Source: Bacillota bacterium (GTDB taxonomy: Bacteria; Bacillota; Sulfobacillia; JAJYWN01). Taken from it: a stretch of 64,000 nt of DNA. The DNA lies in the NCBI GenBank assembly GCA_021791495.1, contig JAJYWN010000064.1:10139-74138 (forward strand), in the 5' to 3' direction. Positions within the stretch are counted from its first letter, which is position 1. Each line of letters opens with the position of its first letter. Of this stretch, positions 1 through 41,353 are shown piece by piece. A model generated the notes under the pieces. The model worked only from the letters and a program-made list of their open reading frames with translations, had not been told where the DNA came from and made no database searches. The position numbers were made by a program, and so were the translations under genes.

Positions 1-1158
1 CTCGGGAGGCTTGACGGAACGGCAGACCACTACACAGGCTTCCATCGGTGAGTTATAGAACAAATTCGGCCCCAGCCCCAGCACGCACTCGATCAGGTCG
101 GTCTCGATTAACTTGCGCCGCATCTCCGCCTCCTCCTGCCGGAAGAGAACGCCGTGGGGAAAGAGGATGGCGCAACGGCCAGTCTCCAGGTCCATGCTGG
201 ACAGAATGTGCTGCCAGAAGGCGTAATCCGCCCGCCCCTGTGGGGGCGTGCCAAGGAAGTTGCGCCCCCAGGGGTCCGCGGTAAACTTGGCCCGGTCCCA
301 CTGCTTGATTGAGTATGGCGGATTGGCCAGGACCACGTCGAACTGCATCAGCCGGTCTCCCTGGACAAACTTCGGTTCCGCAAGCGTATCGCCCCGGACG
401 ACCTGAAAGTCCTCGATGCCGTGCAGGAAGAAGTTCATCCGGGCGATGGAGGAGGTCATCAGGTTCCGCTCTTGCCCATAGAGCCGAACGTTCCGCCACT
501 CCTTACCCTGCCGACGCAACTGGGCAATCGAAGAGAGTAGCATGCCGCCGGAGCCGCAGGTCGGGTCGTAGATTGATTCCCCCGGCTCAGGCTGGAGTAT
601 CTCCGTCATCAGGTGGACAACAGTCCGGTTGGTATAGAACTCTGCCGCCGTGTGTCCCGAGTCATCGGCAAACTTCTTGATAAGAAACTCATAGCCGGCG
701 CCCAGTTCATCTTCCGGCAGGCTTGCTACGGAGAGATTGTACATGCTGAAGTGCTCGATCAGATCACGAAGCAGGGCGTCCGGCAGGCGGTCCTTGTTCG
801 TCCACTGTGCGTCCCCGAAAATGCCATACAGCTTCTCCTGGTTTGCCGTCTCGATGGCGCGCATGGCCGACTGAATCGCCTGGCCTACATTCGTAGCCAC
901 TTGCCGCACCTCGCGCCAGTGTGCCGGCGCCGGCACCTGGAAACGGTGGTTCTCTGGATAGGCCGCAAAATCGCAGTCGCCGCCGGATTCCGTCAGGGCC
1001 AACTCCGTCTCCTCGTCAAACACGTCGCAGAGGCGCTTGTAGAAAAGCAGTGGGAAGATAAACTGCTTGTAGTCGCCAGCGTCGATGGTGCCGCGCAGGA
1101 GGACGGCCGCTCCCCACAGGTAGGATTCAAGCTGCTGTTGCGTGATGCGCTGGTTCAC
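1..1158 (-). CDS. hsdM: Type I restriction-modification methyltransferase subunit HsdM (partial, C-terminus lies beyond the window start)
   Basis: The minus-strand frame is open from the GTG at 1158 to position 1. Translation gives VNQRITQQQLESYLWGAAVLLRGTIDAGDYK at the N-terminus and FDVVLANPPYS (N6-adenine MTase motif IV). It is paralogous to the adjacent 1155..2720 ORF, and its GTG overlaps that gene's stop (GTGA). Confidence 0.75.
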   Translation of the reverse strand, partial: MNQRITQQQLESYLWGAAVLLRGTIDAGDYKQFIFPLLFYKRLCDVFDEETELALTESGGDCDFAAYPENHRFQVPAPAHWREVRQVATNVGQAIQSAMRAIETANQEKLYGIFGDAQWTNKDRLPDALLRDLIEHFSMYNLSVASLPEDELGAGYEFLIKKFADDSGHTAAEFYTNRTVVHLMTEILQPEPGESIYDPTCGSGGMLLSSIAQLRRQGKEWRNVRLYGQERNLMTSSIARMNFFLHGIEDFQVVRGDTLAEPKFVQGDRLMQFDVVLANPPYSIKQWDRAKFTADPWGRNFLGTPPQGRADYAFWQHILSSMDLETGRCAILFPHGVLFRQEEAEMRRKLIETDLIECVLGLGPNLFYNSPMEACVVVCRSVKPPE

Positions 1159-2720
1159 TGAACCAGTCCCTCCCGCTTCAGGATGGCAATCAGCTTCACT
1201 TCTGCCGCAAATGCTGACTCGGCAGACGCTTGCAGCCGCCGCATGGCTTCATCTACAGGCACTATCTCGGTCTCATTCTGCGGCTCCACATAGCGCGGGA
1301 TGTTCAGGTTATAGTCGCTATCGGCAATCTCGGCCAGTGTCACAACCCTGGCTGTTCCGTCCACCTTGGCAAAGTCGCGGTACCAGCCGTAGATCCGCTC
1401 CACATGCTCCGGCAGGAGTTCGTTCTGGGCCCGGCCAGCTTTGAACTCCCGGGAAGCATCAACGATCAGGACCTTCTTTTTCCGGTCCGGCTGCTTCCTC
1501 TGCCTGAAGACACAGATGCAGGCGGCCAGTCCGGTGCCGTAAAACAGATTCGGCCCCAGCCCTATTACCGCTTCAAGCAGGTCCATTTCCAGCAGCTTCT
1601 TTCGGATGGTGCCTTCCTGCCCCATCCGGAAGAGAGCACCGTGGGGCAGGACCACTGCCATGCGGCCGGTGGCCGGAGCCATCGACCTGATCATGTGCTG
1701 GACCCAGGCATAATCGCCGGTTCTGGCTGGCGGCATCCCGGCGAAATTTCGGCCGTAAGGATCGCTGGCCCAGATCTCGTCACCCCACTTCTCCAGGGAG
1801 AACGGCGGATTGGCAATGACGCAATCGAAGGCCGCCAGGTTGTCGCCAGAGTAGAACGCCGGATGGCGTAGGGTATCATCTCGCACGATCTGGAAATCCG
1901 CGGCGTTGTGGAGAAAGAGGTTCATCCTGGCAATAGCGGCAGTAGTCAGGTTCTTCTCCTGGCCGTACAGCTTGCCCCAGAGGGTCCGATCGTCGCCGAG
2001 ATTCTGACGGACATGGTGGACTGCTTCCAGCAACATGCCACCGGTTCCGCAGGCCGGGTCGTATATCGACTCGCCTTCCTGTGGGTCTAGGATGTCAACC
2101 ATCAGCCGAACGACAGGTCGCGGCGTGTAGAACTCGCCGGCCTTTCTGTTGGTCAGATCGGCGAACTTCTTGATCAGGTACTCGTATGACTGGCCAAGGA
2201 TGTCGGCCTCCGCCGACTGATTCCCAAGGCTCATTTTGGAGAAGTGCTCCACCAAGTCGCGGAGCAGCGAATCGGGGAGCCGCTCCTTGTTTGTCCAGGC
2301 CGCATCACCAAAGATGCCGTAGAGCGTGTCCGGGTTCGCCTTCTCAATGTTCCGCATTGCCGTGTGCAGCGCCTGACCCACGTTCGCCGCGACGCTACGA
2401 ACGTCGTTCCAGTGAGATCCCGGCGGGATTTGGAAGCGGAAGTTCTGCGGGAACTGGGCGTACTCCTCATCGCCCCCCGATTCTGCCAGCGCAGCGGCGT
2501 ATTCCTCATCGTAGACGTCCGATATTCGCTTGAAGAAGAGAAGCGGGAAGACGTAGGTCTTAAAGTCAGCCGCGTCCACCGGGCCGCGCAGGATGTTGGC
2601 TGCCTCCCAGAGGTGAGATTGAAGCTGGCTAAGCGTGGTTCCGTAGACGGCCAAGCGGCAATCACTCCCCGCACTTCGGCTAATAACGTAAATGTCACGT
2701 GGGCTCACCCCGGTGACCAC
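1155..2720 (-). CDS. hsdM: Type I restriction-modification methyltransferase subunit HsdM (N6-adenine DNA methyltransferase)
   Basis: A 521-aa ORF with the HsdM N-terminal domain (LSQLQSHLWEAANILRG), the FDCVIANPPFS motif, and an AdoMet-binding region (DPACGTGGML). Confidence 0.85.
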   Translation of the reverse strand: MVTGVSPRDIYVISRSAGSDCRLAVYGTTLSQLQSHLWEAANILRGPVDAADFKTYVFPLLFFKRISDVYDEEYAAALAESGGDEEYAQFPQNFRFQIPPGSHWNDVRSVAANVGQALHTAMRNIEKANPDTLYGIFGDAAWTNKERLPDSLLRDLVEHFSKMSLGNQSAEADILGQSYEYLIKKFADLTNRKAGEFYTPRPVVRLMVDILDPQEGESIYDPACGTGGMLLEAVHHVRQNLGDDRTLWGKLYGQEKNLTTAAIARMNLFLHNAADFQIVRDDTLRHPAFYSGDNLAAFDCVIANPPFSLEKWGDEIWASDPYGRNFAGMPPARTGDYAWVQHMIRSMAPATGRMAVVLPHGALFRMGQEGTIRKKLLEMDLLEAVIGLGPNLFYGTGLAACICVFRQRKQPDRKKKVLIVDASREFKAGRAQNELLPEHVERIYGWYRDFAKVDGTARVVTLAEIADSDYNLNIPRYVEPQNETEIVPVDEAMRRLQASAESAFAAEVKLIAILKREGLVQ

Positions 2721-3501: not shown

Positions 3502-4008
3502 ATGGAGAAGGAGGTGGCGCGGCAGCCCCAACGGGCTGCCGCTTTTGTCATGCCTGAGAAGGAATCGAGAAAGAGGGTCGACCTGGTCCGCCTGAAGATG
3601 GTGCGGGAGTCGTCGACGCTCTACGAGCCGCGCCGGATCGAGTCGCCGAAGGCGGCGGCGGACCTCTTCCGCCAGTTCATCGGCGACGCCGACCGGGAGC
3701 AGATGATGGTCTGCTGCCTGGACGTCAGGAACCAACCGACGTGCCTACATGTGACCAGCATTGGCACGCTGGCCGCCGCTGCGGTCCACCCGCGCGAAGT
3801 ATTCAAGACAGCGGTCCTAGCCAACGCGGCCAGCATCATCGTCGGCCACAACCACCCCAGCGGGGACTGCGCCCCGAGCCGGGAGGACATCGAGGTGACC
3901 AGCCGGCTCCGTGAAGCCGGGCGTGTCCTCGGGATCGAGGTCTTGGATCACGTCATCGTCGGTGGAGCAGCGCACGTGAGCCTGCGCGAGCAGGGAATTG
4001 TGGCCTAG
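3502..4008 (+). CDS. RadC-like JAB/MPN domain protein (DUF2466 family; typical of mobile-element or anti-restriction regions)
   Basis: The C-terminal domain carries the conserved HNHPSG motif and the ED..TSRL pattern characteristic of RadC-like JAB proteins. Confidence 0.8.
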   Translation: MEKEVARQPQRAAAFVMPEKESRKRVDLVRLKMVRESSTLYEPRRIESPKAAADLFRQFIGDADREQMMVCCLDVRNQPTCLHVTSIGTLAAAAVHPREVFKTAVLANAASIIVGHNHPSGDCAPSREDIEVTSRLREAGRVLGIEVLDHVIVGGAAHVSLREQGIVA

Positions 4009-4627: not shown

Positions 4628-4689
4628 CAACGCTGCCAGGTCCTCCTTTTTTTTCGTTGTGCGCCATGTTCGCTCCCACGAAGACGCCG

Positions 4690-6140
4690 GGAACCCCAGA
4701 ATCGTCGAAACGCCGGGCCTCGCCAGCCGCCCGGCCCGGAAGACCCCCCAGGGCGTAGCTCGGGAGCCTGCTGCTCGCTTGCGAGCCCACTTGCGGCCCT
4801 GGACCGGCAGTGAAGCGTTTGGGCTCGCGCGTGCTTTCGGCCCGCCCTTGTGAGCCGTTCCCGTCCACTCGCCGCCGCCGGGCGCCCGGCCGGCTAGGCA
4901 TGCCAGAAACTCCGCCCTTCTTGTCGCACTCGCTCGCGAGTCGGCGCTTGTTCCCTACTTCACAAGGGCGGGTTTCAACAACTCCATGTGCGATATGGAA
5001 ACGCGACGGCTAGCCGGTGGGCGCAGAAGCGTCACCTTTCCGGTCTTGCCGCGCCTCGGGCCCCGAGCCCCCGTTGGACGCCGCTCCGGGGCCCCCGGCG
5101 ATCCCCGTCCGGATTTACGCCCCTTCCGGCTCGACCGGGGGTGCAGGCCGTCGGTGGCGGCTTGCCTGCCGGCCTGCCCGGCTATCGCCGCCGACGGGTG
5201 GTCCGCTGCCCGAGAAGCCGGAGGGCAGGCGGAGGGCCCCTGCGGCCGCGCGCCCCGGCAAGCCGTGGAGATCGACGCTCCGCGGCTCCCTGGTTGGCTA
5301 GGGCGTCGGCCAGTAACTTGGTAGGGAGTTTGGCCAAAGGCCGTCTCGGTCGTCCTGGGGCTGAACCCGTAATCGCCGCTCCCCGCCGGGCCATCCGGCC
5401 CGAGCGCCACCAGGGCGTCGCTCAAACGCCTGCCCCCGCTCGGGGGCCCGCCTTTCGGCCTTGGACCGATAGTTGCGCCCTTTGGGCTCGCGCCAGCTTG
5501 CGGGCGCTCGCGGGAGCCGTCTTTGCTTGATCGCCGCCGCGGGGCGTCCAGCCAGCCAGGCAAGCCAGGAACTCCGCCCTCCACCGTCACTCATGCTTGC
5601 AGGCCGACAATTCTTCCAGATTCCACGATGGCAGGAGCTAACAAATATATGTAGGGCATCAAAACGCGACAACTGCCCGACGGGCGCAGAAGCGCCGCCG
5701 TTGCGGTGTTGCCGCCCCTTCGAGCCTCGAGCACCCGTCCGACGCCGCTGCGGGGCCCTGGGCAATCACCGTCCGGATCTACGCCCCTTCCGGCTCGACC
5801 GGCAGGGCCGGCCGTCGATGGCGGCTTACCTCCGGGCCTGCCCGGTTACTGCCGCCGACCGGCGGTCCGCGGTGGGGGAGGCGGGAGAATGGGCGGAAGG
5901 CGCCCGCGCCCTCGCGCCCCGGCAAGCCGTGGAGATCGACGCTCTCACGGACCCATGCCAGGTCTGGGCGTGGCTTTGACACGGGGTAAGGGTTCCGCAG
6001 TTGCGGCCAGGCACAGAGCACTGGTCAGCCGACCTGCATGCCGTCCATTCCAGATGAGGATCACCCAACTCGCCGCCAGAAGCACCGAAAGCCATCGCAC
6101 CGCCCCAGTGCTCGTTGTTCAACCAGGAAACCCGAGGAGG
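4690..6140. repeat. tandem array of about 2.3 diverged ~664-bp repeat units (partial unit ~4690-4815, unit A ~4816-5479, unit B ~5480-6140)
   Basis: Direct sequence comparison gives a consistent 663-664 bp offset. TTTGGGCTCG is at 4818 and 5481, AAACGCGAC at 4999 and 5662, and GATCGACGCTC at 5270 and 5934. Identity is about 80-85% over ~300-bp cores. The region is GC-rich and every reading frame is Arg/Pro-rich. Confidence 0.8.
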
Positions 6141-6227
6141 TGGTGGCCCTATGAGCGGATAACGCGGCTCCCGCCGCCGTGAACCCCGACTCAACATAAA
6201 ACCACACCATAGAGGAGGCTGAACATC

Positions 6228-6776
6228 GTGGATAAGAGACCGATCCCAAAGCCTGGCCCAAAGGGCCTCGCTGTTCCCATCGTGAGGCGAACCGTCAGCT
6301 ATCCGAAGGAGGACGCAACGGCGACAGCCGCACCCGACGCTTTCGGGCTAGCCGAGTTCGCCCAAGAGTGGCGCGAGACCGACGCTATGGCGGATTTCTC
6401 CCGAATTCCCAACGGCGTCTACGCCGTGGAGGTCAGGCGGGTGGGTCTCCGCCGCAAGGAGCCCGATGTCTACCTGGACTGGGTCCTGCAGGTCGTGGAA
6501 GGCGACCACGCCGGGAGGCAGGTTCGGAAGTCCCTGCCCTTCCGGTTGGGCAAGACCATCCGGTACCTCAAACACGACCTCTCGACGGTGGGGCTGGGCG
6601 ACGTCGAACTGCAAGAGCTGCCGCCTAGGCTGCAGGAAGCGCGCGGCCGGTTGGTCGAGGTCCGCGTGAGTGGCCAGGAAAACCTGCCGGACGTCTGGTT
6701 CGCCCGAGGGCTGTCGGAGGAAGCCGGGGACAACGGCCCTGTGGACGAAAGCCCTGATGATCGAGGGACCCTATGA
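6228..6776 (+). CDS. hypothetical protein, paralog family 1 of 2 (shares the DLS.VGLG.VELQ.LP motif with 8781..9224)
   Basis: GTG start with AGAGGAGG 8 nt upstream. Its stop overlaps the start of the next gene (ATGA). Confidence 0.55.
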   Translation: MDKRPIPKPGPKGLAVPIVRRTVSYPKEDATATAAPDAFGLAEFAQEWRETDAMADFSRIPNGVYAVEVRRVGLRRKEPDVYLDWVLQVVEGDHAGRQVRKSLPFRLGKTIRYLKHDLSTVGLGDVELQELPPRLQEARGRLVEVRVSGQENLPDVWFARGLSEEAGDNGPVDESPDDRGTL

Positions 6777-8332
6777 AGAAGTCGAGAGTCCAGACTGGCG
6801 GGGGGCCGGGGCGCCCCCCCGCCCCTCCACCCGGCGGTGCGCGTCCCACAATCGACACGGGGCACAGAAACCTGGCGGAGATGACGGCGGCGGCGTGGGA
6901 GGCCATGCGCCTGGCGAACGGGGACGAACCTAAGTACTTCGCCTCCGGCTCGCAGGTGGTCATGCTTGTTGACCGAGGCCAGCAGTTGCCGACGGTCTTG
7001 GCCCTGGATTTCTATTCCCTTCGCCGGGAACTCGCGACCTGTACCGACTGGATGCGCTTTGACGGGGACGGACACCCCTGGGACGAGTTTCCCGTCAAAG
7101 CCTGCGTCGAGACGATGTTGTCTTACCCCAATCCACCCCTCCCCGCACTCAACCGGGTGGTCGGAGTCCCGGTCCTGAGGCCGGACGGGACGCTACTAGA
7201 CCGCGCCGGGTACGATGCGGTTTCGGGGCTGTACCTCTACCCGACCTGCGACGTCGTTCTGCCAGACGGCCAACTGGGACCCGACGACATAGCCGCGGCG
7301 CTGGCCGTGATCGACGCCCTCCTGTGCGACTTCCCCTTCGTCGGGAGCGCGGACAGGGCGTTGGCGTTCGCGACCCTGCTGGAACCGTTCGTCCGGGAGA
7401 CGTTCGAGGGGCCAACGCCCCTCAGGTGCGTCGACGCGGTTTCCGGACAGGGAACCGGGAAGGACCTCTTGGCGACGACGCTAATGTACCCGTTCGCCGG
7501 CCGCGAGGAGTCGGCCCTGACCGAAGGGAGCACCGACGACGAGTGGCGGAAGAGGCTGACGGCGGCGTTGCTTCGGAAGCCCACCTTCATCTACATAAGC
7601 AACGTGCAGCGCACCCTGGACTCGGCGGCTCTGGCCGCCGCCCTGACGACCACCAACTGGGAGGACCGCATCCTGGGCCAGAGCCGGACCGTCGTCCTCC
7701 CGAACCGGAGCACTTGGATCGCGACTGGGAACGGAATCACCACTTCGCGGGAACTCCGTCGGAGGGTCCTCAAGATCGTCCTGGACGCGAGGCAGGAGTG
7801 CCCGTGGTTGCGCACGGGCTTCCGCCACAACCTGGTCGAGTGGCGCCAGGAGCACCGAGGCGAGATCGTCGGGGCAGCGCTGACCCTCGCCACCGCCTGG
7901 GTCCAGAGGGGGCGACCCCTGGGCACTGCGGTTCTCGGTTCCTACGAACGGTGGGCTGCGACCATGGGGGGAATCCTGGACGCCGCCGGCGTCCCAGGAT
8001 TCCTGGAGAACCTGGGGGGCGCCCAGGAGTCGTTCGATGAAGAGACCAGGCAGCTTCTGGATTTCCTCCGTGCCTGGTGGGCGACGTTCGGGAGCCGTGC
8101 CGTGACCGCCGGGGAACTCCGCACCGGCCTGTCCGAAGACGTGCTCCCGCTGGCCGTTTCCGACGGATTCTCCGGCGGCCAGACGATCCGCCTCGGGAAG
8201 CTGCTGGTGGGCCTAGTGGGGCGGCATCTTGGAGGCGTGCACGTCGCCTTGGCAACCCCGGACAGGTCCCGGAAACTCCAGCGTTACCGGCTGGAGACGG
8301 TGGAGACGCACCCACAGTTCCCGGAGGTGTAG
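6773..8332 (+). CDS. hypothetical 519-aa protein (mobile-element associated; degenerate P-loop-like GQGTGKD segment; possible replication/primase-helicase-like function)
   Basis: A long ORF translationally coupled to the upstream small protein. There is no confidently recognizable family. Confidence 0.5.
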   Translation: MKKSRVQTGGGPGRPPAPPPGGARPTIDTGHRNLAEMTAAAWEAMRLANGDEPKYFASGSQVVMLVDRGQQLPTVLALDFYSLRRELATCTDWMRFDGDGHPWDEFPVKACVETMLSYPNPPLPALNRVVGVPVLRPDGTLLDRAGYDAVSGLYLYPTCDVVLPDGQLGPDDIAAALAVIDALLCDFPFVGSADRALAFATLLEPFVRETFEGPTPLRCVDAVSGQGTGKDLLATTLMYPFAGREESALTEGSTDDEWRKRLTAALLRKPTFIYISNVQRTLDSAALAAALTTTNWEDRILGQSRTVVLPNRSTWIATGNGITTSRELRRRVLKIVLDARQECPWLRTGFRHNLVEWRQEHRGEIVGAALTLATAWVQRGRPLGTAVLGSYERWAATMGGILDAAGVPGFLENLGGAQESFDEETRQLLDFLRAWWATFGSRAVTAGELRTGLSEDVLPLAVSDGFSGGQTIRLGKLLVGLVGRHLGGVHVALATPDRSRKLQRYRLETVETHPQFPEV

Positions 8333-8780
8333 GCGGGGCCAATCCCCGAAACGCCCGTATCCGAAAGTGCCAGCTCAGGTGGCAGATGACGGGGGGCTCG
8401 GGAAGATCGGGTAGTTGCCGGCCCCCCGAAAATGGCCGTTCGGCTACGGAAAGGGCTGGGAAGGGTCCGGCGCCTCCCCGCTCTCCCCGAACTCCCCGGT
8501 CGAAACTACCATACGGTCGCTGATCAACCGCGCCCTTCTGGTTCGCCCCGCTCTGCCATGCTGTCGATCCTGCCCACTCCGGTCCATAGCTCCTCCGGCG
8601 CTAGCCACGGCCGGGGGGGTGTGGGCCAGCGTGGGCAGTCCATGCCATACTCCCAATCGAGGGGAGGTCAGAATGCACATGGGTACGTGACTGACGCACG
8701 CTGCCGCCCGAGCGCGCTATTGAGGTTGCGACAGCATCTCTCGCTACGTTCAAGACTACTCTGAGGAGGCTAAACAAACG

Positions 8781-9224
8781 ATGCTCAGCGATTCCATACC
8801 GAAACCAGTCGCGGTGACGGTCTTCCCCTTAGCGGGCGACCGACCAGTGTTAGTGGTTGTGGGCTTGAGGGGTCTGGTGGGCCTGGAGGCGACCGGACCC
8901 ATTCCGAGCGCCACCTACAAGGCAACAATCCGGACAATCGACCTATGCAAGGGGAAAGACGGCTATGTCCTGACCTGGGGCCTGGTAATGGCTGGTGGGG
9001 ACCTAGACGGCCGGTACTTTGAAGTGGTACGTGGTCCTTTCGAGGAAGGCGAGAGGTACGAGGATGTCCGGCTGGACCTCTCCCTGGTGGGACTCGGCGG
9101 GGTTGAGCTCCAGCAACTGCCGTGCGTTCTCGGCGTCGCCTTGGGTTACACCCTGGACATCCTCGTCTCGGGCGCGAATAACATCAAGTTCCTCTGCTCG
9201 TTGAACCAGATGCAGGTTGACTGA
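8781..9224 (+). CDS. hypothetical protein, paralog family 2 of 2 (related to 6228..6776)
   Basis: ATG with CTGAGGAGGCTAAACA upstream, similar to the leader of 6228. It has the shared C-terminal motif DLSLVGLGGVELQQLP. Confidence 0.5.
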   Translation: MLSDSIPKPVAVTVFPLAGDRPVLVVVGLRGLVGLEATGPIPSATYKATIRTIDLCKGKDGYVLTWGLVMAGGDLDGRYFEVVRGPFEEGERYEDVRLDLSLVGLGGVELQQLPCVLGVALGYTLDILVSGANNIKFLCSLNQMQVD

Positions 9225-9580
9225 CGCAGCGCAGTACTCTGGCTCCCCGATCCGGCGGGAGGGGCCGCCCCTGACCCCTTCCCCGGCGTCGGTGTCACAC
9301 GCTGCCTATGCGCGCCCTAGTCGCCCCTACGCCCCCCGGGGAAGAGCCGGCGTTTCCGGATGGCAGCGGCATTTCCGGAAGCGATGGGTTAGCCGAGCTG
9401 GGGCGATAGAGGCGGGGGCATAGGGCGCGGAAACAGGACTGTTCGCTCCCCATGGGAGCTGTGGGATGCACCATCCCAGCTAACAACGCTACCGCCCTGA
9501 GAGTTGTCCTGAGTGTCCTACGAGACCAGCCTCCAACCGCTTCGTCAATCGACTGGGACAGATATCATTCCTGTGGAGGA

Positions 9581-9802
9581 ATGCAGATGCTGATCGAAGA
9601 CGCAACGACTTCAAACCTAGACCGCTCGGGAGCGGCCACGGAGATGCTCACCGTCGCCCAAGCCGCCCATTTCCTTCGCTTACATCCTGCCACGCTCTAC
9701 CGGCTCGTCAAGGAAGGGGCCCTGCCGTGCATCCGGCTCGGCAGGCTCATTAGGATTCCCATGTCGGCCATCCTTGGGTTGGTAAGGCCGTCTGCGATGT
9801 AA
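9581..9802 (+). CDS. xis: excisionase-family helix-turn-helix DNA-binding protein (Xis); the start may be at 9644
   Basis: LTVAQAAHFLRLHPATLYRLVKEGALPCIRLGRLIRIP matches the excisionase/MerR-like HTH family. It sits immediately upstream of the integrase. Confidence 0.65.
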   Translation: MQMLIEDATTSNLDRSGAATEMLTVAQAAHFLRLHPATLYRLVKEGALPCIRLGRLIRIPMSAILGLVRPSAM

Positions 9803-9905: not shown

Positions 9906-11120
9906 ATGTCGATCCGGAAGACCAAATATGGCACATACGAAACCAAGGTCTACCAGGGGGTGGACCCGGCCACCGGCAGAGAAGCCTACGCCTACCGGAC
10001 GTTTAAGACCAAGGCCGAAGCGAAGCGCTTCGAGGCCGATGCCAAACGCTCCGTTGAGGAGCAGGAGCACAGACCACCCACAGAACTGACCGTCGTCGAG
10101 TTCCTTCAGGAATGGCTGGAGAAGGACGTCAGGCCCAACCTCAAGCGCCGCACCGCCTTGCGCTACGAGCAGTTGATCCGTGTCCAGGTCGCGCCGGCCA
10201 TTGGGCGCGTCCCGCTTGCGAAGCTCTCGGCGCGCGACGTGGCCAGCTTCCTTGCGGGCCTGAAAGCGCAGGTTGCCGATCGGACCCGCCTGCACGCCTA
10301 CCGGGTCCTCCATCGGGCGCTGAACGTCGCCGTCCAGTGGGGCCTCGTTGGGAGGAACGCTTGCGACGGGGTGAAGGCTCCGAAGGCGGCTCAGCCGGTG
10401 CTCCACGTGCTAGAGGCATCCGAAGTCGAGGCCCTCCTGAGGACGGCCAAGAAGGAGAGGATCTACCCACTCGTCCTGACCGCAGTCATGACGGGAATGC
10501 GCGTTGGAGAACTGTGCGGGTTGCGGTGGCAGGACGTAGACTTGGAGGATCGCGTGGCCACCGTGGCACAGGCGCTTGACAAGCCGGGACTGCAGCCCCT
10601 GTTCACGACGCCGAAGAACAGAAAGACACGCAAGGTTCCCCTTGCCCCGGATCTCGCGGAGACGCTGCGCGCGTGGCGGGCGGGGCAGGCGAAGGAGAAG
10701 CTGTTCTTCGGCCAGGAGTATGTTAGCATGGGCCTAGTCTTCTGCCAGCCCGACGGGCGTCCCCTGAACCCTCAGAGCCTGACCAGGCATACCTGGAAGA
10801 GGATCAGTAGGGCTGCGGGATTGCCCAACGGCATCCGATTCCATGACCTCCGGCACACCTTCATCTCAAGGGCACTGCAGGCCGGGGCTAACCCCAGGGC
10901 AGTCGCCGAGATTGCCGGACACCATGACGCGTCGTTCACGCTGCGAGTGTACGCCGGCGTGACCCTGAACGACTCCAGGGAGGCGGTGGCACAGCTCCAG
11001 GACTACCTGGCATTCAAGGGAGGCGGCCTCGTCCCAGCCCTGGCACCGGCAGACCGGCCTTCGCCGTCGACGAGCTCAAGCCGAAGTCCTGGCCTCCGCC
11101 TTCGCGTGTCGAAGGCATAG
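9906..11120 (+). CDS. int: tyrosine-type site-specific recombinase / phage integrase
   Basis: It has an N-terminal SAM-like domain and the C-terminal catalytic signature (R..HDLRHTF..Y). The C-terminal low-complexity tail may be read-through. Confidence 0.85.
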   Translation: MSIRKTKYGTYETKVYQGVDPATGREAYAYRTFKTKAEAKRFEADAKRSVEEQEHRPPTELTVVEFLQEWLEKDVRPNLKRRTALRYEQLIRVQVAPAIGRVPLAKLSARDVASFLAGLKAQVADRTRLHAYRVLHRALNVAVQWGLVGRNACDGVKAPKAAQPVLHVLEASEVEALLRTAKKERIYPLVLTAVMTGMRVGELCGLRWQDVDLEDRVATVAQALDKPGLQPLFTTPKNRKTRKVPLAPDLAETLRAWRAGQAKEKLFFGQEYVSMGLVFCQPDGRPLNPQSLTRHTWKRISRAAGLPNGIRFHDLRHTFISRALQAGANPRAVAEIAGHHDASFTLRVYAGVTLNDSREAVAQLQDYLAFKGGGLVPALAPADRPSPSTSSSRSPGLRLRVSKA

Positions 11121-11220
11121 CACCAATAGGTGGTAAGCATGCAGCCAGAAGGCTCCAAGGAGGGCCAAGCCAAAGTTGCTGGTCGAGTTGCCGTTTCTGG
11201 CCAGCTTCCAAGTGACCAAC

Positions 11221-11258
11221 CGAAACCCTCCCTTTCACTACAGGGCGGGAGGGTTTCG
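11221..11258. other. perfect 12-bp inverted repeat (CGAAACCCTCCC / GGGAGGGTTTCG) with a 14-nt loop
   Basis: Seen directly, 100 bp downstream of the integrase stop. There is no U-tract after it. It could be a structural or recombination-related hairpin, or a factor-binding site. Confidence 0.5.
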
Positions 11259-11755
11259 CGTTGGCGCTATCCTGGGAAGGAATCGCCCCTACCTCTTGCC
11301 GAAGAAGCATCTGGCCCTCACGGTTTCGTCAAGGGAGTGGCAGTGTTGTTGTCTCCGCCGTTACTGCGGTTTCCTGCGGATTACCCGCCCGATTGCCCGA
11401 TTTCCGGGGCTCATCCCGTCACCTGGTCCGTATGGTACTTGGTGGATCAGTCGCCACCATCCGCCGATGACTTCAGGCCTTTGGCTGTAAAAGAGGGTCG
11501 AGCGAACTACGAGCGACGCAACAACCGACAGAAATGCATGGCCAGGGGCATATCTGTTTGGACGGACAGGTCGGCTGTCCTGGTTGCGCAGTCTCTAAAT
11601 CCGGGACTGGCGGGAAAGCTGCTTGCGCGTGGTACGATAAAGCCTACAGATGGCTGGGTGGCTCAAACGGGGGGAAATCCTGCCCACCACACGTGGTGGC
11701 CTTTTGAAGGAGTATCTCCGCATACGATTTTCCAGGTTGAGGGGAGGTGAGCGGA

Positions 11756-12946
11756 GTGGCCCACGAGATTGAATTGTTGACTCCTTTCGGGGTGCTGGGC
11801 ATAAGCGAAGTTTGGGTCGAGTTCAACGGGCCTCGGCTGTTCACCTGTGAGAACGCAGCCGGACATGCCTACATAGGGATGTGGGTCATGGAAGGCAAGG
11901 ACAGGGATGTTTATCTCTTTATGGCCGTCAGCCATGAACGTCTGGAAACTATACGCAGAGGCATGATGCCATTGTGTGTGGCTATCGTTTCTTCCGAATG
12001 CGGTATTGAAGAGGTCACCTTCTTCCCGGACGGTTCGGTAGCCAAATCCCGACACCTGGATGCGGAGCAGATCCCGAAAGAGTACCTCCCCTCAGAGGAT
12101 GCGGTAGTGACAATCTACGAGGATCAGGAACACCGAGAGCCCGAGATCACTTCGGTCACAATGGCTGTTCGAAGCCGGCGGGAGATCGTGGACGTGTGTG
12201 TTGATGGGGGAGCAGCTAGATTCCACGAATTGCAGACCAGGCGCCTAGGGACCCTCCTACTGAACACCCAAGATCTCTTGGATGACCTTGCCAACCCGGA
12301 ATCCGCCACCAGAGGAAGATTGCCCAAGGCGCTGATTGACGAGACGCAGTTCAATGCACTACCGGTAGCCGCAGGTTCTTTCCGAATACGTCTGGCGTCG
12401 GCCAATGCTTGTGACCTCTTCTTTGACACGGGAATGGCGACCAAAGCGGCAAGACAGATGGTCGACCTCATCCAGGCGTGTGCCAAGCCGGATAGCCTCG
12501 GGCCTGCTGCAGAAGGCATCGGCCCTCGCGCAGCAGGGAAGCTTCGTGACCTGTTGGGCGATCTGTCCGCTGATGGACTGAGCCTAACTGTGGACTGGGG
12601 ATCGCCTGCCGACCACAGGAACGTGGCACGGCTTTCCGGTAGGGAGGTTCACGAAGCTTTCACTGCCCTCACCCAGAAAGCCCTACCGGTCTCCTCCATC
12701 TTCACGGTCCATGGAAGGCTGACCGGTCTGGACACCGATAAGCGGTCCTTCAGGTTTCACGCTGACGACGGCAGTCTGTACACTGGATCATATACCGACA
12801 ATTGCGCGGAAGAAGTTCTTATGCGTCTGGCCAGGCAGGAAGGCGGGACGCCGTCGACCGCCACTATCGAGCAGATAGTCGTGGTTGTCCCGGCGACTGG
12901 GGAAACCAAGACAAGCAACATATTACGGACGTTGATCCCGGATTAG
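11756..12946 (+). CDS. hypothetical 397-aa protein (orphan cargo gene; the start may alternatively be GTG at 11747)
   Basis: A long ORF with GAGGGGAGG upstream. Its composition is of lower GC than the flanks. No recognizable domains. Confidence 0.55.
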   Translation: MAHEIELLTPFGVLGISEVWVEFNGPRLFTCENAAGHAYIGMWVMEGKDRDVYLFMAVSHERLETIRRGMMPLCVAIVSSECGIEEVTFFPDGSVAKSRHLDAEQIPKEYLPSEDAVVTIYEDQEHREPEITSVTMAVRSRREIVDVCVDGGAARFHELQTRRLGTLLLNTQDLLDDLANPESATRGRLPKALIDETQFNALPVAAGSFRIRLASANACDLFFDTGMATKAARQMVDLIQACAKPDSLGPAAEGIGPRAAGKLRDLLGDLSADGLSLTVDWGSPADHRNVARLSGREVHEAFTALTQKALPVSSIFTVHGRLTGLDTDKRSFRFHADDGSLYTGSYTDNCAEEVLMRLARQEGGTPSTATIEQIVVVVPATGETKTSNILRTLIPD

Positions 12947-13134
12947 GAGGTGGACGCAAGCCGACCCGGGCATTCTCCGACAGCCGAAACGCTTCCACGC
13001 GCTCCTTTCCACGATTGAGCTCCCTCTCCGGCCTCCGAGAGCTGCCTCCACTTGGTTCAATTTTGCGAGAGAAGCATCTCCGTGCCCGACGACAAACCGC
13101 AAACAGTAATGTCAAGATGACTGTCCCGCGGCAG

Positions 13135-13210
13135 AATCCGGGGTCGGCAAAAGACCGCCCCGGGGGCGGTACGCGCAAATCGTTGTCCGGTAATTGCGCC
13201 CGGGAGGACT
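13135..13210. repeat. att-like direct repeat copy: duplicate of the tRNA-Arg(CCU) 3' end plus its downstream hairpin region
   Basis: CAAATCGTTGT...TGCGCCCGGGAGGACT (13176-13210) matches 14821-14856. AATCCGGGG...hairpin (13135-13175) matches 14767-14820. Confidence 0.7.
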
Positions 13211-13729
13211 TTAGCCACCGCGCCGGTCTCTTGTCAGAATCGTGTCCACCAAATCTGCGTATTCCCGTGAGCCCTCCACGCGCGGGCCAGCATCGTGCTC
13301 GATAGCGTGCCGAGCTTTCTCCAGCGGAAGATCGGCCAGAGTACGGGCGATTGCCCAAACGCCTTGCTCCCGCTTCTGTGTTGGTAGATTCTTGACCCCC
13401 AGGGTTTCCGCAAATCGTCTTAGATCCTTGGCCTCCGGCAGCAATTCTCGAGACATCATCTGACTCAACACCTGGGATAAAAAAGCATACATCTGTGGGT
13501 TTTGTTCCCTCAACTCAGTCAGGAAAGCGGATCGTGTGCTTTTTGCCTTGCTTCCGGGGCGCAAGTCTCTACGGGCATTGAGCTTATCCAGAGATCGCAA
13601 AATCCTGCCGAGAGGTTCGGTCTCCGAGTCACCTTCCAGGATGCTGGTGACGTCAAGAATATCCCGTCTTGAGTACGTCTCCCCAATGATCAGCATTTCA
13701 AGAAGTAGCTTCTTGTTTGTTGTCATCAC
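13211..13729 (-). CDS. hypothetical protein, putative ParA partner (172 aa)
   Basis: It overlaps the parA stop by 4 nt (ATGA). Low-GC composition. Confidence 0.5.
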   Translation of the reverse strand: MMTTNKKLLLEMLIIGETYSRRDILDVTSILEGDSETEPLGRILRSLDKLNARRDLRPGSKAKSTRSAFLTELREQNPQMYAFLSQVLSQMMSRELLPEAKDLRRFAETLGVKNLPTQKREQGVWAIARTLADLPLEKARHAIEHDAGPRVEGSREYADLVDTILTRDRRGG

Positions 13730-14565
13730 AGGCCCACCTTCGCGGCGAACTCCTTTCCAAATGCTTCAAACTCATCTATCACGTTGCTTCTCGCATACTC
13801 CGTATGGAAGATTGCGGTCTTGTCTCTGGCCCCCCGTGGATATGATCGTGAATGGCGAACTTCGTTTACGAACACAGGCCAACCGTACTGTAGCGCTCGC
13901 TCCTTGACCTCAGCCCTAGCCTGGTTGTGTTCCGCGTATGAATAGGATGGGTCGGCGTCGTTGAAAACGATGCCGGCGATCTGTACTGTTGCTGTTCTGT
14001 GTGAGCGCCGGAAATCGTCCAGTGAACGGACTAGCAACGGCAAGCCTATGGCAGCTAGGAACTCCGGCTTTACGGGAATCAAGACACTGTCGCTAGCTAA
14101 ATAAGCTGCCACGGTTAACATCGATTCAGTCGGAGGGCAGTCCAGAAGAATCAGATCATATTTGTCACGAACATCAGCGAGGAAACCTGCCAACAGGTGT
14201 TCCTTGCTAGCCGGGTTCTTCAGCGTCCATGACAACTCCAGCAACGACGGGACCAAGTCAATAAGACTTCCATCGGTCCATCTCTTGACCCGCTTAATCA
14301 TGCTCTCAGGGGTGATCTCTTGCCTCGGTGCTATGGTTGGAGTGAACTGCTCGAAGATGTCAAATACTGTCGGTGCGTGTTGGTCCAGATGCTTTCGATA
14401 CTCTACAACACCCATTAAGTACTGACTTGCGTTGGCTTGGGGGTCCAAGTCGACAAGTAGTACTTTCTTGTTCCGTCTATACGCCACATACCAGGCCAGA
14501 TTGAACGCCAGCGTGGTCTTGCCCACGCCTCCTTTCATGTTGATAACAGCAACGGTGACGACCAT
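13726..14565 (-). CDS. parA: ParA/MinD-family partition ATPase
   Basis: Deviant Walker A motif MKGGVGKTT with LVDLDPQANAS. Confidence 0.85.
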   Translation of the reverse strand: MVVTVAVINMKGGVGKTTLAFNLAWYVAYRRNKKVLLVDLDPQANASQYLMGVVEYRKHLDQHAPTVFDIFEQFTPTIAPRQEITPESMIKRVKRWTDGSLIDLVPSLLELSWTLKNPASKEHLLAGFLADVRDKYDLILLDCPPTESMLTVAAYLASDSVLIPVKPEFLAAIGLPLLVRSLDDFRRSHRTATVQIAGIVFNDADPSYSYAEHNQARAEVKERALQYGWPVFVNEVRHSRSYPRGARDKTAIFHTEYARSNVIDEFEAFGKEFAAKVGL

Positions 14566-14766
14566 TTCAAGCTCCCCCTCTTTCCTTCGTTTGGTAAATG
14601 GGGTTCGCCGCCTGGTCGTTTGGTCCCTGTCCTATTACTCCTTCGTTTTGGCCGATCATTTGACCGTGACGTATAGGGAGGGCCACGCATGGTTCGATGA
14701 TTGGACACGGCATACGGACATGGGCGGCAAGGGCACTGCAGGTTCCAGTTTGGGCACGACTCTGCC

Positions 14767-14856
14767 TAATCCGGGGTAAAATCCGGGGTGGTCCGAAGAC
14801 CACCCCGGGGTTGGTCGGCACAAATCGTTGTGCCGCAATGTGCGCCCGGGAGGACT
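14767..14856. repeat. att-like direct repeat copy at the tRNA-Arg(CCU) 3' end, including a perfect terminator-like hairpin CCGGGGTGGTC-CGAA-GACCACCCCGG (14784-14809)
   Basis: See the matching copy at 13135-13210. Confidence 0.7.
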
Positions 14857-14914
14857 CGAACCACCGGCACGCGGTTTAGGAAACCGCTGCTCTATCCACC
14901 TGAGCTACGGGCGC
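14841..14914 (-). tRNA. tRNA-Arg (anticodon CCU)
   Basis: Manual cloverleaf: acceptor GCGCCCG, D-loop AGGTGGATAGAGC, anticodon loop TTCCTAA, T-arm GGTTCGAGTCC, discriminator A, and no encoded CCA. Confidence 0.85.
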
Positions 14915-15056
14915 AAAGCTATGTCAAGTACAATCGATGCGGTTCTGAAAGTGCAATAGATATTTTACCGCCGCGTCAGGACGCCGTCAAACAGAATGGC
15001 AAATGCTCTATACGCGGACAGGCCGTCTGCCGAGACAATTGGTCTGTTTGGACCGG

Positions 15057-33565: not shown

Positions 33566-33854
33566 GTCCGTTTGTTTGCGCCGCGGGCGGCTCCTTCGAC
33601 CGACGCCTACGAGGTTAGCTGACGGGTTGGGGCAGTCGAAGTCGCCCCTCCGCTTACGGCGGATTCACCCCAGGGAATTGGGTCCCCCGTTCCTTTTCAG
33701 GATTCGGCGTTTACGGGATGAAACTGTATACCTGCACGGTTTGTGCTGTAAAGGTTCAATGTCACCCTTGTCGTTTCCTTCTTGTTGTAGCTGCGCCTTT
33801 GGCTCACCTGGCACGTGTCATGAAGCACTTCTCGGTCGTTGTAAAGGAAAATCG

Positions 33855-33895: not shown

Positions 33896-33902
33896 TCGCT
33901 TG

Positions 33903-33977
33903 TGCGCCCGGCAGGATTCGAACCTGCGACCTCCAGATTCGTAGTCTGTCACTCTAATCCAACTGAGCTACGGGCGC
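33903..33977 (-). tRNA. tRNA-Arg (anticodon ACG)
   Basis: Manual cloverleaf: acceptor GCGCCCG, anticodon loop CTACGAA, T-arm GGTTCGAATCC, discriminator A. Confidence 0.8.
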
Positions 33978-33985
33978 ATATCCGG

Positions 33986-34076
33986 CGGAGAGAGAGGGAT
34001 TCGAACCCTCGCTGGAGTGAACACCCCACTAACGGTTTAGCAAACCGTCCCCTTCAGCCGACTTGGGTATCTCTCC
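33986..34076 (-). tRNA. tRNA-Ser (anticodon GCU)
   Basis: Acceptor GGAGAGA, anticodon loop TTGCTAA, a long variable arm, and T-arm GGTTCGAATCC. Confidence 0.8.
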
Positions 34077-41238: not shown

Positions 41239-41267
41239 ACCTCTTTTCAGACCGCTCCATCATAGTG

Positions 41268-41353
41268 CGGAAGGGGTGGGATTCGAACCCACGGCCCCTT
41301 GCGGGGTCACTGGTTTTCAAGACCAGCTCCTTAAACCGCTCGGACACCCTTCC
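41268..41353 (-). tRNA. tRNA-Ser (anticodon UGA)
   Basis: Acceptor GGAAGGG, anticodon loop CTTGAAA, long variable arm, T-arm GGTTCGAATCC. The anticodon is UGA (reads UCA), so this is not tRNA-Sec. Confidence 0.8.

Follow-up and report, generated by a model that had tools for sequence, protein, structure and literature searches.

A candidate replication module in an integrative island of a Sulfobacillia bacterium, combining paired DUF669-type genes with a primase-less D5-like helicase gene

Three neighboring genes in a 64,000-nucleotide stretch of a Bacillota bacterium genome (contig JAJYWN010000064.1; hereafter the window, meaning the whole stretch analyzed) appear to encode the parts of a small DNA replication module. 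The first and third genes, sp1 and sp2, encode divergent members of the DUF669 (PF05037) family of single-stranded DNA-binding proteins (SSBs) of the phage N4/HK620 type, an assignment made from sequence profiles and, for sp1, also from the predicted fold. The large open reading frame (ORF) between them encodes a 519-aa protein predicted to be a D5-like superfamily 3 (SF3) helicase of the AAA+ class, equivalent to the C-terminal module of primase-helicase fusions. Genes for an excisionase-like protein and a tyrosine integrase lie directly downstream of sp2. Our preferred reading, which we consider reasonably likely, is that the trio serves the replication of an integrative mobile island, with a gene order of SSB, initiator-helicase and SSB, then excisionase and integrase.

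The three genes lie on the forward strand: sp1 (6228-6776, +) has a GTG start and encodes 182 aa, the helicase gene (6773-8332, +) encodes 519 aa, and sp2 (8781-9224, +) encodes 147 aa and is the more diverged of the two DUF669-type OB-fold (oligonucleotide/oligosaccharide-binding) paralogs. An independent gene call on a 329-kb contig of a metagenome-assembled genome that carries this DNA (GCA_027420595.1, DAIBIV010000026.1) returned identical ORFs, and all three are intact and have strong ribosome-binding sites. The ATG of the helicase gene (6773-6775) overlaps the TGA of sp1 (6774-6776), giving the ATGA overlap at 6773-6776 that a first-pass annotation of this DNA had pointed out. The same annotation had described the small ORFs as paralogs with near-identical leaders, and both observations hold. 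sp1 and sp2 are 38% identical across 97 aa (BLASTP, E 3e-15), the likeness extends over the whole core domain rather than the quoted C-terminal motif alone, and an IPKP is also common to the two N-termini. The sp1 leader and Shine-Dalgarno region (GAGGAGGCTGAACA; 6212-6225, +), in which GGAGG stands 9 nt ahead of the GTG start, has its counterpart at sp2 (GAGGAGGCTAAACA; 8763-8776, +). Within the 64-kb window the 14-nt pattern GAGGAGGCT[G/A]AACA occurs at 6212-6225 and 8763-8776 only, and the leader 14-mer, GAGGAGGCTRAACA, is likewise present at the sp1 and sp2 leaders only; 0.05 matches are expected by chance, and 0 of 100 shuffles gave two. Since the leader is confined to these two sites, the gene and its ribosome-binding region were apparently duplicated together, the sp2 leader having been copied along with the gene.

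Searched directly, sp1 matches Pfam DUF669 at 19.8 bits (E 9e-4, covering positions 8-56 of 138), just under the cut-off of 21, and gives weak matches to PHROG SSB families, while sp2 has no direct Pfam match and no PHROG match. A word-index homology search with sp1 returned nothing beyond sp1 itself. The family assignment comes from profiles: a profile of the sp1/sp2 core, run against 1.84 billion representative proteins (E <= 1e-3), retrieved 177 proteins, mostly of 125-200 aa, most of which match over most of the domain. When the best 60 of the 177 were aligned with sp1 and sp2, 59 of the 62 sequences matched Pfam DUF669, with a best E of 1.8e-17. Against a profile of the DUF669-like matches from which both had been left out, sp1 scores 109 bits and sp2 scores 41 (E 5e-9 at Z=1e6). 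The DUF669-like consensus in the alignment reads LKxDLxxxGLxLxxLSxLPxxL, and the near-invariant positions P, Y, W, DL, G and L are kept in sp2. The C-terminal motif DLSxVGLGxVELQxLP, which the first-pass annotation had noticed in the pair, is indeed present in both proteins, but it is a signature of the whole DUF669-like family and nothing peculiar to these two.

The AlphaFold2 model of sp1 (predicted local distance difference test score, pLDDT, 84; mostly >90 in the core) places an OB-type barrel with a two-helix insertion at residues 63-161. It is preceded by a disordered N-terminal extension (residues 1-35) and followed by a tail, residues 162-182 (LSEEAGDNGPVDESPDDRGTL), that is predicted to be disordered and contains seven D/E and one R. 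sp2 ends in ...LNQMQVD and has no acidic C-terminal tail. Compared with BFVD by Foldseek, the sp1 model finds phage DUF669 proteins as its top matches (E 5e-8 to 1e-6). Against the PDB it finds PrgE of pCF10 first (PDB 8s4s, 8s4t; E 2e-5; target-normalized template modeling score 0.53-0.62), then SsbA and bacterial and mitochondrial SSBs. PrgE resembles sp1 as a mobile-element-encoded OB-fold DNA-binding protein, if sp1 binds DNA as we infer, but the two are only 13-15% identical and a sequence search with the DUF669-like profile misses PrgE; the plasmid that encodes PrgE is conjugative and can conjugate without it (PMC11137577).

In profile and size (~130-170 aa), and for sp1 also in fold, the small proteins are like the DUF669 phage SSBs, namely the N4 SSB-like proteins and the HK620 SSB Abc1/HkaK. 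Both carry the DUF669 signature PDGxY...W...LKxDLxxxGL, and sp1 has the acidic tail (PMC4889955, PMC5928155), which is typical of DUF669 proteins and of SSBs in general (PMC4889955). They differ from these SSBs in that sp1 has a 35-residue N-terminal extension and lacks the usual ...PF end, in that sp2 is tail-less, and in that the neighbor of their genes is an SF3 helicase gene of an integrase island and not sak4. DUF669 has been linked to the N4 SSB and inferred to be the replication SSB in phages without other SSBs (PMC4889955), and the HK620 member acts as an SSB in vitro and stimulates Sak4, the gene for which phage DUF669 SSB genes often adjoin (PMC5928155). By this relationship, sp1 and sp2 would bind single-stranded DNA. 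The closest outside relative of the pair (P0123; L088 3872-4855) is a 327-aa protein with two tandem DUF669-like domains, so paired DUF669 domains also exist as a fusion; its gene adjoins a canonical SSB gene in an apparently chromosomal context.

The 519-aa protein has no match in Pfam (E <= 0.01) or NCBIfam (E <= 0.1), models of the D5_N, Pox_D5, DUF5906 and Primase_Cterm type included, and PDB sequence searches with the single protein and with a family profile gave nothing significant. The profile showed no sequence link to solved SF3 helicases; an insignificant alignment to Cdc48 pairs PGTGK with the Walker A and IDN with the Walker B IDE. Among curated models only PHROG recognizes the protein, with strong matches (E 1e-61 to 5e-37) that fall in the C-terminal 380-400 residues of longer proteins (865-1229 positions), and one of the matching families is annotated as DNA polymerase/primase. 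At least 317 homologs were found, at identities of up to 44% (37-44% among the 120 listed), the same range as to the C-terminal module of bacterial fusions. Fewer than half of the 120 listed are stand-alone proteins of ~500-540 aa without a Pfam domain, and many of the longer ones (fusions of 700-1100 aa) carry N-terminal Prim-Pol, Toprim, zf-CHC2, DUF3854 or PriCT primase domains.

The AlphaFold2 model of the 519-aa protein (pLDDT 89, predicted TM-score 0.81) has an N-terminal collar (~26-210), an ATPase core (~212-345) and a helical region with what is probably a C-terminal winged helix (~354-510), modeled as helices at 446-452, 460-463 and 467-481 followed by strands at 489-493 and 505-509. 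Foldseek matched the model to 119 PDB chains at E <= 1e-3, and nearly all of the top 50 are SF3 primase-helicases or SF3 helicases (probability 1.00). The best match is the primase-helicase of the Staphylococcus aureus pathogenicity island (SaPI) SaPI5; vaccinia D5, mpox E5, the C-terminal region of the NrS-1 protein, the African swine fever virus (ASFV) PrimPol, PriRep1 and the large T antigens of SV40 and JC virus are also among them, and the whole set, SaPI5 included, has E 3e-7 to 3e-5. These matches span ~360-420 aligned columns at ~10% sequence identity. Taken together, the PHROG matches, the homologs and the model argue for a D5-like SF3 helicase module that lacks a primase, and we would expect it to act as a helicase and to recognize an origin. 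Thus, structure prediction, which the first-pass annotation had proposed, yielded an OB fold for sp1 and an SF3 helicase for the large protein, and the description of all these proteins as uncharacterized families does not stand.

We compared the ATP site across 194 distinct sequences of the helicase family, with some comparisons made over 185 relatives. The segment GQGTGKD (residues 225-231) had been described as a degenerate P-loop, and an Asp does follow its lysine. It is, however, more than P-loop-like: it forms the loop between a predicted strand (217-222) and a predicted helix (230-242), which is the position of the AAA+ P-loop, and by this placement in the model it would be a true Walker A. 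The family Walker A reads PGTG[K/A][T/S/G]LL; the window helicase, with SGQGTGKD, keeps the lysine, and the residue corresponding to its Asp231 is T, G or S in all 193 relatives with a residue there. The family Walker B is hhIDN, with the D in 193 of 194 sequences and the N invariant, and is thus D-N as opposed to the canonical D-[DE]; the window helicase reads FIYISN, with Ser276 in place of the acidic residue. N320, carried by a strand that ends in TGNN, E327 and R330 are found in 194 of 194 sequences with a residue there and R331 in 192 of 194, and the window helicase keeps all four; the sensor-1 role (N320) and the arginine-finger role were assigned by position in the predicted fold rather than by structural superposition.

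The Walker A lysine of this family occupies one of two positions. It stands either at 230, as in the canonical GTGK, or about seven residues upstream at 222 (IEKPxPGTGA), at the end of strand beta-1. K222 is accompanied by A, G or S at 230 in 121 of the 194 sequences, and K230 by A, S or G at 222 in the other 73; none has both lysines and none has neither. The sequences compared are the window helicase, homologs P0002-P0120 and loci L003-L082, and on a rough neighbor-joining tree the state changes at least 15 times. A limited literature search found no relevant description of such a relocation in SF3 helicases.

The island context is provided by two genes downstream of sp2. The first (9587-9802, +) encodes a 71-aa excisionase/AlpA-like DNA-binding protein (Pfam HTH_17, E 5e-13) and the second (9906-11120, +) a 404-aa tyrosine integrase (Pfam Phage_integrase, E 1e-32, plus a SAM-like N-terminal domain). 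These genes bear out the integrative element that had been proposed as the setting of the trio; the claim that its replication core was built from uncharacterized families is the part that fell. The helicase gene is followed by a 448-bp intergenic spacer (8333-8780) in which no gene was called.

We envisage the following sequence of events, assuming, as we infer, that the island is still active. Int and Xis would excise the island as a circle. The 519-aa helicase would then assemble on element DNA, using its probable C-terminal winged helix if it behaves like SaPI Rep, and open or unwind the DNA. Translational coupling through the ATGA overlap would cause sp1 to be made in fixed proportion with the helicase; sp1 would coat the exposed single strand, and its acidic tail would recruit partner proteins. 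sp2, the tail-less duplicate expressed from the copied leader, may serve as a second ssDNA-binding subunit or co-polymerize with sp1. Because the island encodes no primase or polymerase, priming and synthesis would be supplied by the host or a helper phage, on which the element would then depend.

Several results weigh against this reading. First, the arrangement does not recur. Among 80 helicase-homolog loci from GTDB species genomes, all ORFs of which were searched with hidden Markov models (HMMs), ~70 hold primase-helicase fusions and ~8 stand-alone helicases, and a DUF669 gene lies within 6 kb of the helicase homolog at one (L057); a later HMM scan of the stand-alone loci found no DUF669 besides L057. 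That locus is a phage and holds an ordinary phage replication/recombination module, which encodes, besides the DUF669 SSB, a Cas4-like nuclease, a Sak4-like ATPase, a RecD-like helicase and a 914-aa primase-helicase fusion; a terminase is also present. No helicase is present in the contexts of the two closest DUF669 relatives (P0123, P0124). The one linkage in 80 and these helicase-free contexts indicate that the trio is a one-off arrangement and not a conserved system, contrary to the co-occurrence in other elements that the first-pass annotation had raised. Neither sp1 nor sp2 has a close homolog detectable by word-index and profile searches, so conservation of the arrangement cannot be shown, and the helicase, whose best homolog is 44% identical, has no close relative either.

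Second, the sites and genes that one might look for in such an element were not found. The origin of SaPI-type elements is found downstream of the helicase gene. In the window, no 6-8-mer exceeds shuffled sequence in 8333-8780, 9225-9582 or 5980-6227, a search that very short or degenerate iterons could escape, and the 8333-8780 spacer holds short, weak repeats only. No AT-rich dip is visible beside the helicase gene (GC 0.58-0.69). No island ORF matches a primase family in Pfam, PHROG, NCBIfam or the gene calls. No attachment-site (att) repeat pair was found around the integrase-containing segment, and the island ends were not located; apart from the tRNA-Arg repeat described below, a comparison of the right-hand region between the island's right end and tRNA-Arg (12901-15000) with the left 6.3 kb and 3.2 kb further upstream gave no exact repeat of 13 nt or longer and two matches of chance length (11-12 nt). 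Third, the window helicase departs from 182-184 of 185 relatives at D276S, N321G and R336V and is the sole family member with Asp after the Walker A lysine (T/S/G231D). Given D231, S276, G321 and V336, its ATP hydrolysis may be impaired.

The missing parts and the altered ATP site could also be explained if the trio were a decaying or domesticated remnant. The island would once have carried a primase-helicase replication module, from which the primase and the helicase's ATP hydrolysis have been lost, and the genes would now be drifting or be kept for something other than replication, for instance to bind DNA or to interfere with a phage's replication. The window helicase is the only sequence with Ser in place of the Walker B Asp, where 193 of 194 have D, and the only one with Asp at residue 231 (T, S or G in the others); it is one of two sequences with Gly at N321, it has Val at R336, and it ranks joint second to fourth of 185 for breaches of columns conserved at >=98%. 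The missing primase, iterons and att pair would fit such a remnant, as would the defense-like neighbors described below, a PD-T4-10-like gene pair and a type I restriction-modification system. Nevertheless, we consider decay unlikely. The three ORFs are intact and retain their strong ribosome-binding sites, and the helicase keeps 38 of the 41 columns conserved at >=98%, the Walker A lysine, N320, E327 and R330/R331 among them. Mg2+ is canonically liganded at positions 231 and 276, and T231D with D276S swaps an Asp and a hydroxyl between these two, an exchange that, judged from the sequence, could be compensatory. Finally, small islands that encode an integrase, and usually also an HTH (helix-turn-helix) protein, are a recurrent setting of stand-alone helicase homologs. 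Some of these islands have no primase in the ORFs examined (L007, L044/L085, L059), so the lack of a primase is not decay in itself; others have a separate Prim-Pol gene just upstream that overlaps the helicase start (L031, L083). One of the latter (L083/L084, the P0087 locus) encodes an integrase, an HTH_17 protein, a DEAD-box helicase, a 271-aa protein and a Prim-Pol overlapping the stand-alone helicase homolog, as well as a Phage_capsid gene and a ParE/PhD toxin-antitoxin pair, and resembles a capsid-encoding satellite or small prophage.

The compensatory exchange also admits a bolder interpretation, to which we give little credence at present: that the ATP site of the whole family has been rewired, and that the window helicase is a second-order rewiring, a still active, unusual motor with a dedicated pair of DUF669 SSBs.

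A different possibility concerns the small proteins. Rather than serve as general SSBs, sp1 and sp2 might be OB-fold accessory factors that join in a hetero-complex and recruit the helicase to a specific site or regulate it there, in the manner of OrfL/OrfM of ICESt3; those two complexed OB-fold proteins contact a helicase, and act on their relaxase and PcrA helicase (PMC12614216). The paralog pair is kept around the helicase gene with one member translationally coupled to it, the acidic tail is found in sp1 only, and the N-terminal IPKP is common to both proteins. In addition, the closest solved structure is that of PrgE, a plasmid-encoded, atypical OB-fold protein that shows no preference between ssDNA and dsDNA and oligomerizes through its N-terminal tail (PMC11137577). 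However, sequence and fold place sp1 and sp2 in DUF669, whose characterized members are replication or recombination SSBs (PMC5928155), and the island has no relaxase or conjugation gene by Pfam or gene calls; we therefore regard an accessory complex of this kind as quite improbable. Last, the trio might be a recombination module, its DUF669 SSBs partnered by a recombinase or a strand-annealing protein like those in the Sak4-SSB modules of phages. This would be in keeping with the common adjacency of DUF669 SSB and sak4 genes in phages (PMC5928155) and with the Cas4-like nuclease, Sak4-like ATPase and DUF669 gene of L057, the sole related locus with both DUF669 and a helicase homolog, but it is very improbable here, as Pfam and PHROG searches of the island showed no gene for Sak4, RecT, Erf or a nuclease and the gene coupled to sp1 encodes an SF3 helicase and not a RecA-like annealase.

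Returning to the replication module, its closest parallels in organization are found in staphylococcal elements. The Rep proteins of SaPIs are self-loading SF3 initiator-helicases with a C-terminal winged helix that bind and melt origins without ATP (PMC9371898). The predicted layout of the window helicase is comparable, with an N-terminal domain ahead of the AAA+ core and a probable winged helix at the C-terminus. The replication module of SaPIs and phage-inducible chromosomal islands (PICIs), consisting of Pri plus Rep or of a fused primase-helicase such as PriRep5 of SaPI5 (PDB 7ola, 7om0, 7pds), likewise sits in an integrative island with an integrase and an HTH protein. The differences are substantial: there is no detectable sequence similarity (~10% identity, no Pfam or NCBIfam match), the window element has no primase gene or domain and has sp1 as the upstream gene, no iteron origin was found downstream of its helicase gene, and no packaging, capsid or interference genes were seen in the island. 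To our knowledge, no SaPI has been described with a DUF669 SSB pair.

The gene order is matched by staphylococcal cassette chromosome mec (SCCmec) elements of pattern 1, in which an operon of a short ssDNA-binding protein and a helicase stands beside the recombinases (PMC7581432). There, as proposed for the window, an ssDNA-binding protein gene (LP1413) lies directly upstream of a self-loading helicase gene (cch), and the operon has no primase (PMC7581432). The parts are nonetheless non-homologous, LP1413 being a winged-helix protein and Cch an MCM-like DUF927 helicase, whereas the window has two copies of an OB-fold DUF669 SSB and a helicase of the D5-like SF3 type. That fold is also the one found in primase-helicase fusions (P4 alpha-like proteins, NrS-1 gp28, poxvirus D5 and ASFV C962R), from which the window helicase differs in standing alone, with no primase in cis or nearby, and its family differs from the canonical fusion helicases in the D-N Walker B and the two alternative positions of the Walker A lysine. 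The trio would thus work like a SaPI or SCCmec replication module, without being a member of those specific families, from parts that are of known kinds by fold and profile.

Directly upstream of the sp1-helicase operon lies a tandem non-coding repeat (4640-6010), which we do not count as a proven member of the module. The first-pass annotation had seen here an upstream repeat array; what is present is a two-copy tandem duplication of ~663 bp (~4640-5330 and 5302-6010) and not an iteron array. The copies are 82% identical at a spacing of 662-664 bp, have 65-76% GC, and share perfectly conserved blocks that include CCCCGGCAAGCCGTGGAGATCGACGCTC and CCGTCCGGATYTACGCCCCTTCCGGCTCGACCGG. Coding potential was ruled out: mismatches are spread 14/13/13 over the codon positions, with no 3-periodicity, and most indels break the frame (6 of 8 internal gap runs are not multiples of 3). 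The repeat and the intergenic regions gave no Rfam match at gathering score or E <= 1, except for a chance MS2-hairpin (E 0.23), and the window contains no further copies. Exact 22-mer scans found a single chance match among metagenome contigs, in a transposase-like ORF and otherwise unalignable, and none among viral contigs.

On the other side, the integrase gene is directly followed by two ORFs that probably form a two-gene anti-phage defense cargo of the island, judging from their PADLOC matches: 11139-11750 (+) matches PD-T4-10_A (E 2.5e-5), and 11756-12946 (+) matches PD-T4-10_B (E 6.5e-7, in its N-terminal part only) as well as Pfam DUF6575. sp1, the helicase gene and sp2 have no PADLOC match, which rules them out as a known defense system. 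Upstream of the module are a type I restriction-modification system with HsdR, a fused HsdM-S and a second HsdM, and a RadC-like JAB protein (1155-2720 (-), 3502-4008 (+), L001 1-5882), so the region looks like a defense island. Further downstream, a 26-nt copy of the 3' end of tRNA-Arg(CCT) (14840-14914) occurs 1.6 kb away at 13195-13220 with 88% identity. This repeat, the only att-like one, was ruled out as the att site of the integrase segment; it brackets only the gene of a ParA-like ATPase and almost the whole of an overlapping 171-aa ORF (13211-13729 (-), 13726-14565 (-)), a segment of ~50% GC, against 60-70% around it, that looks like a separate small insert or remnant at tRNA-Arg(CCT). 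A c-di-AMP (cyclic di-adenosine monophosphate) riboswitch (107 bits) beside a tRNA-Arg(ACG)/tRNA-Ser(GCT) pair, and a tRNA-Ser(TGA) further on (33589-33719 (-), 33902-34076 (-), 41267-41353 (-)), are unrelated to the module.

The first-pass annotation had allowed for the outcome that the small proteins would fall into a known phage family and the large one would be a standard helicase with no special linkage. Since sp1 and sp2 belong to a known phage SSB family, the large protein is of the SF3 type and the two were linked at 1 of 80 loci, this is largely what emerged. The trio is thus a rather ordinary module; its few oddities are in the ATP site of the helicase, where the residual interest lies. 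On our reading, three genes that would otherwise be called hypothetical become the SSB, SF3 helicase and SSB of a replication module, carried by an integrative island with defense cargo. The module would be a further case of the logic by which an SSB is paired with a self-loading helicase, known from SCCmec and SaPI elements, here assembled from different parts. The helicase belongs to a module that is abundant in bacterial primase-helicase fusions, yet neither Pfam nor NCBIfam has a model for it. Should structural and biochemical work confirm it, the repeated exchange of the Walker A lysine between two positions in this family would be a clean natural experiment on the plasticity of the P-loop.

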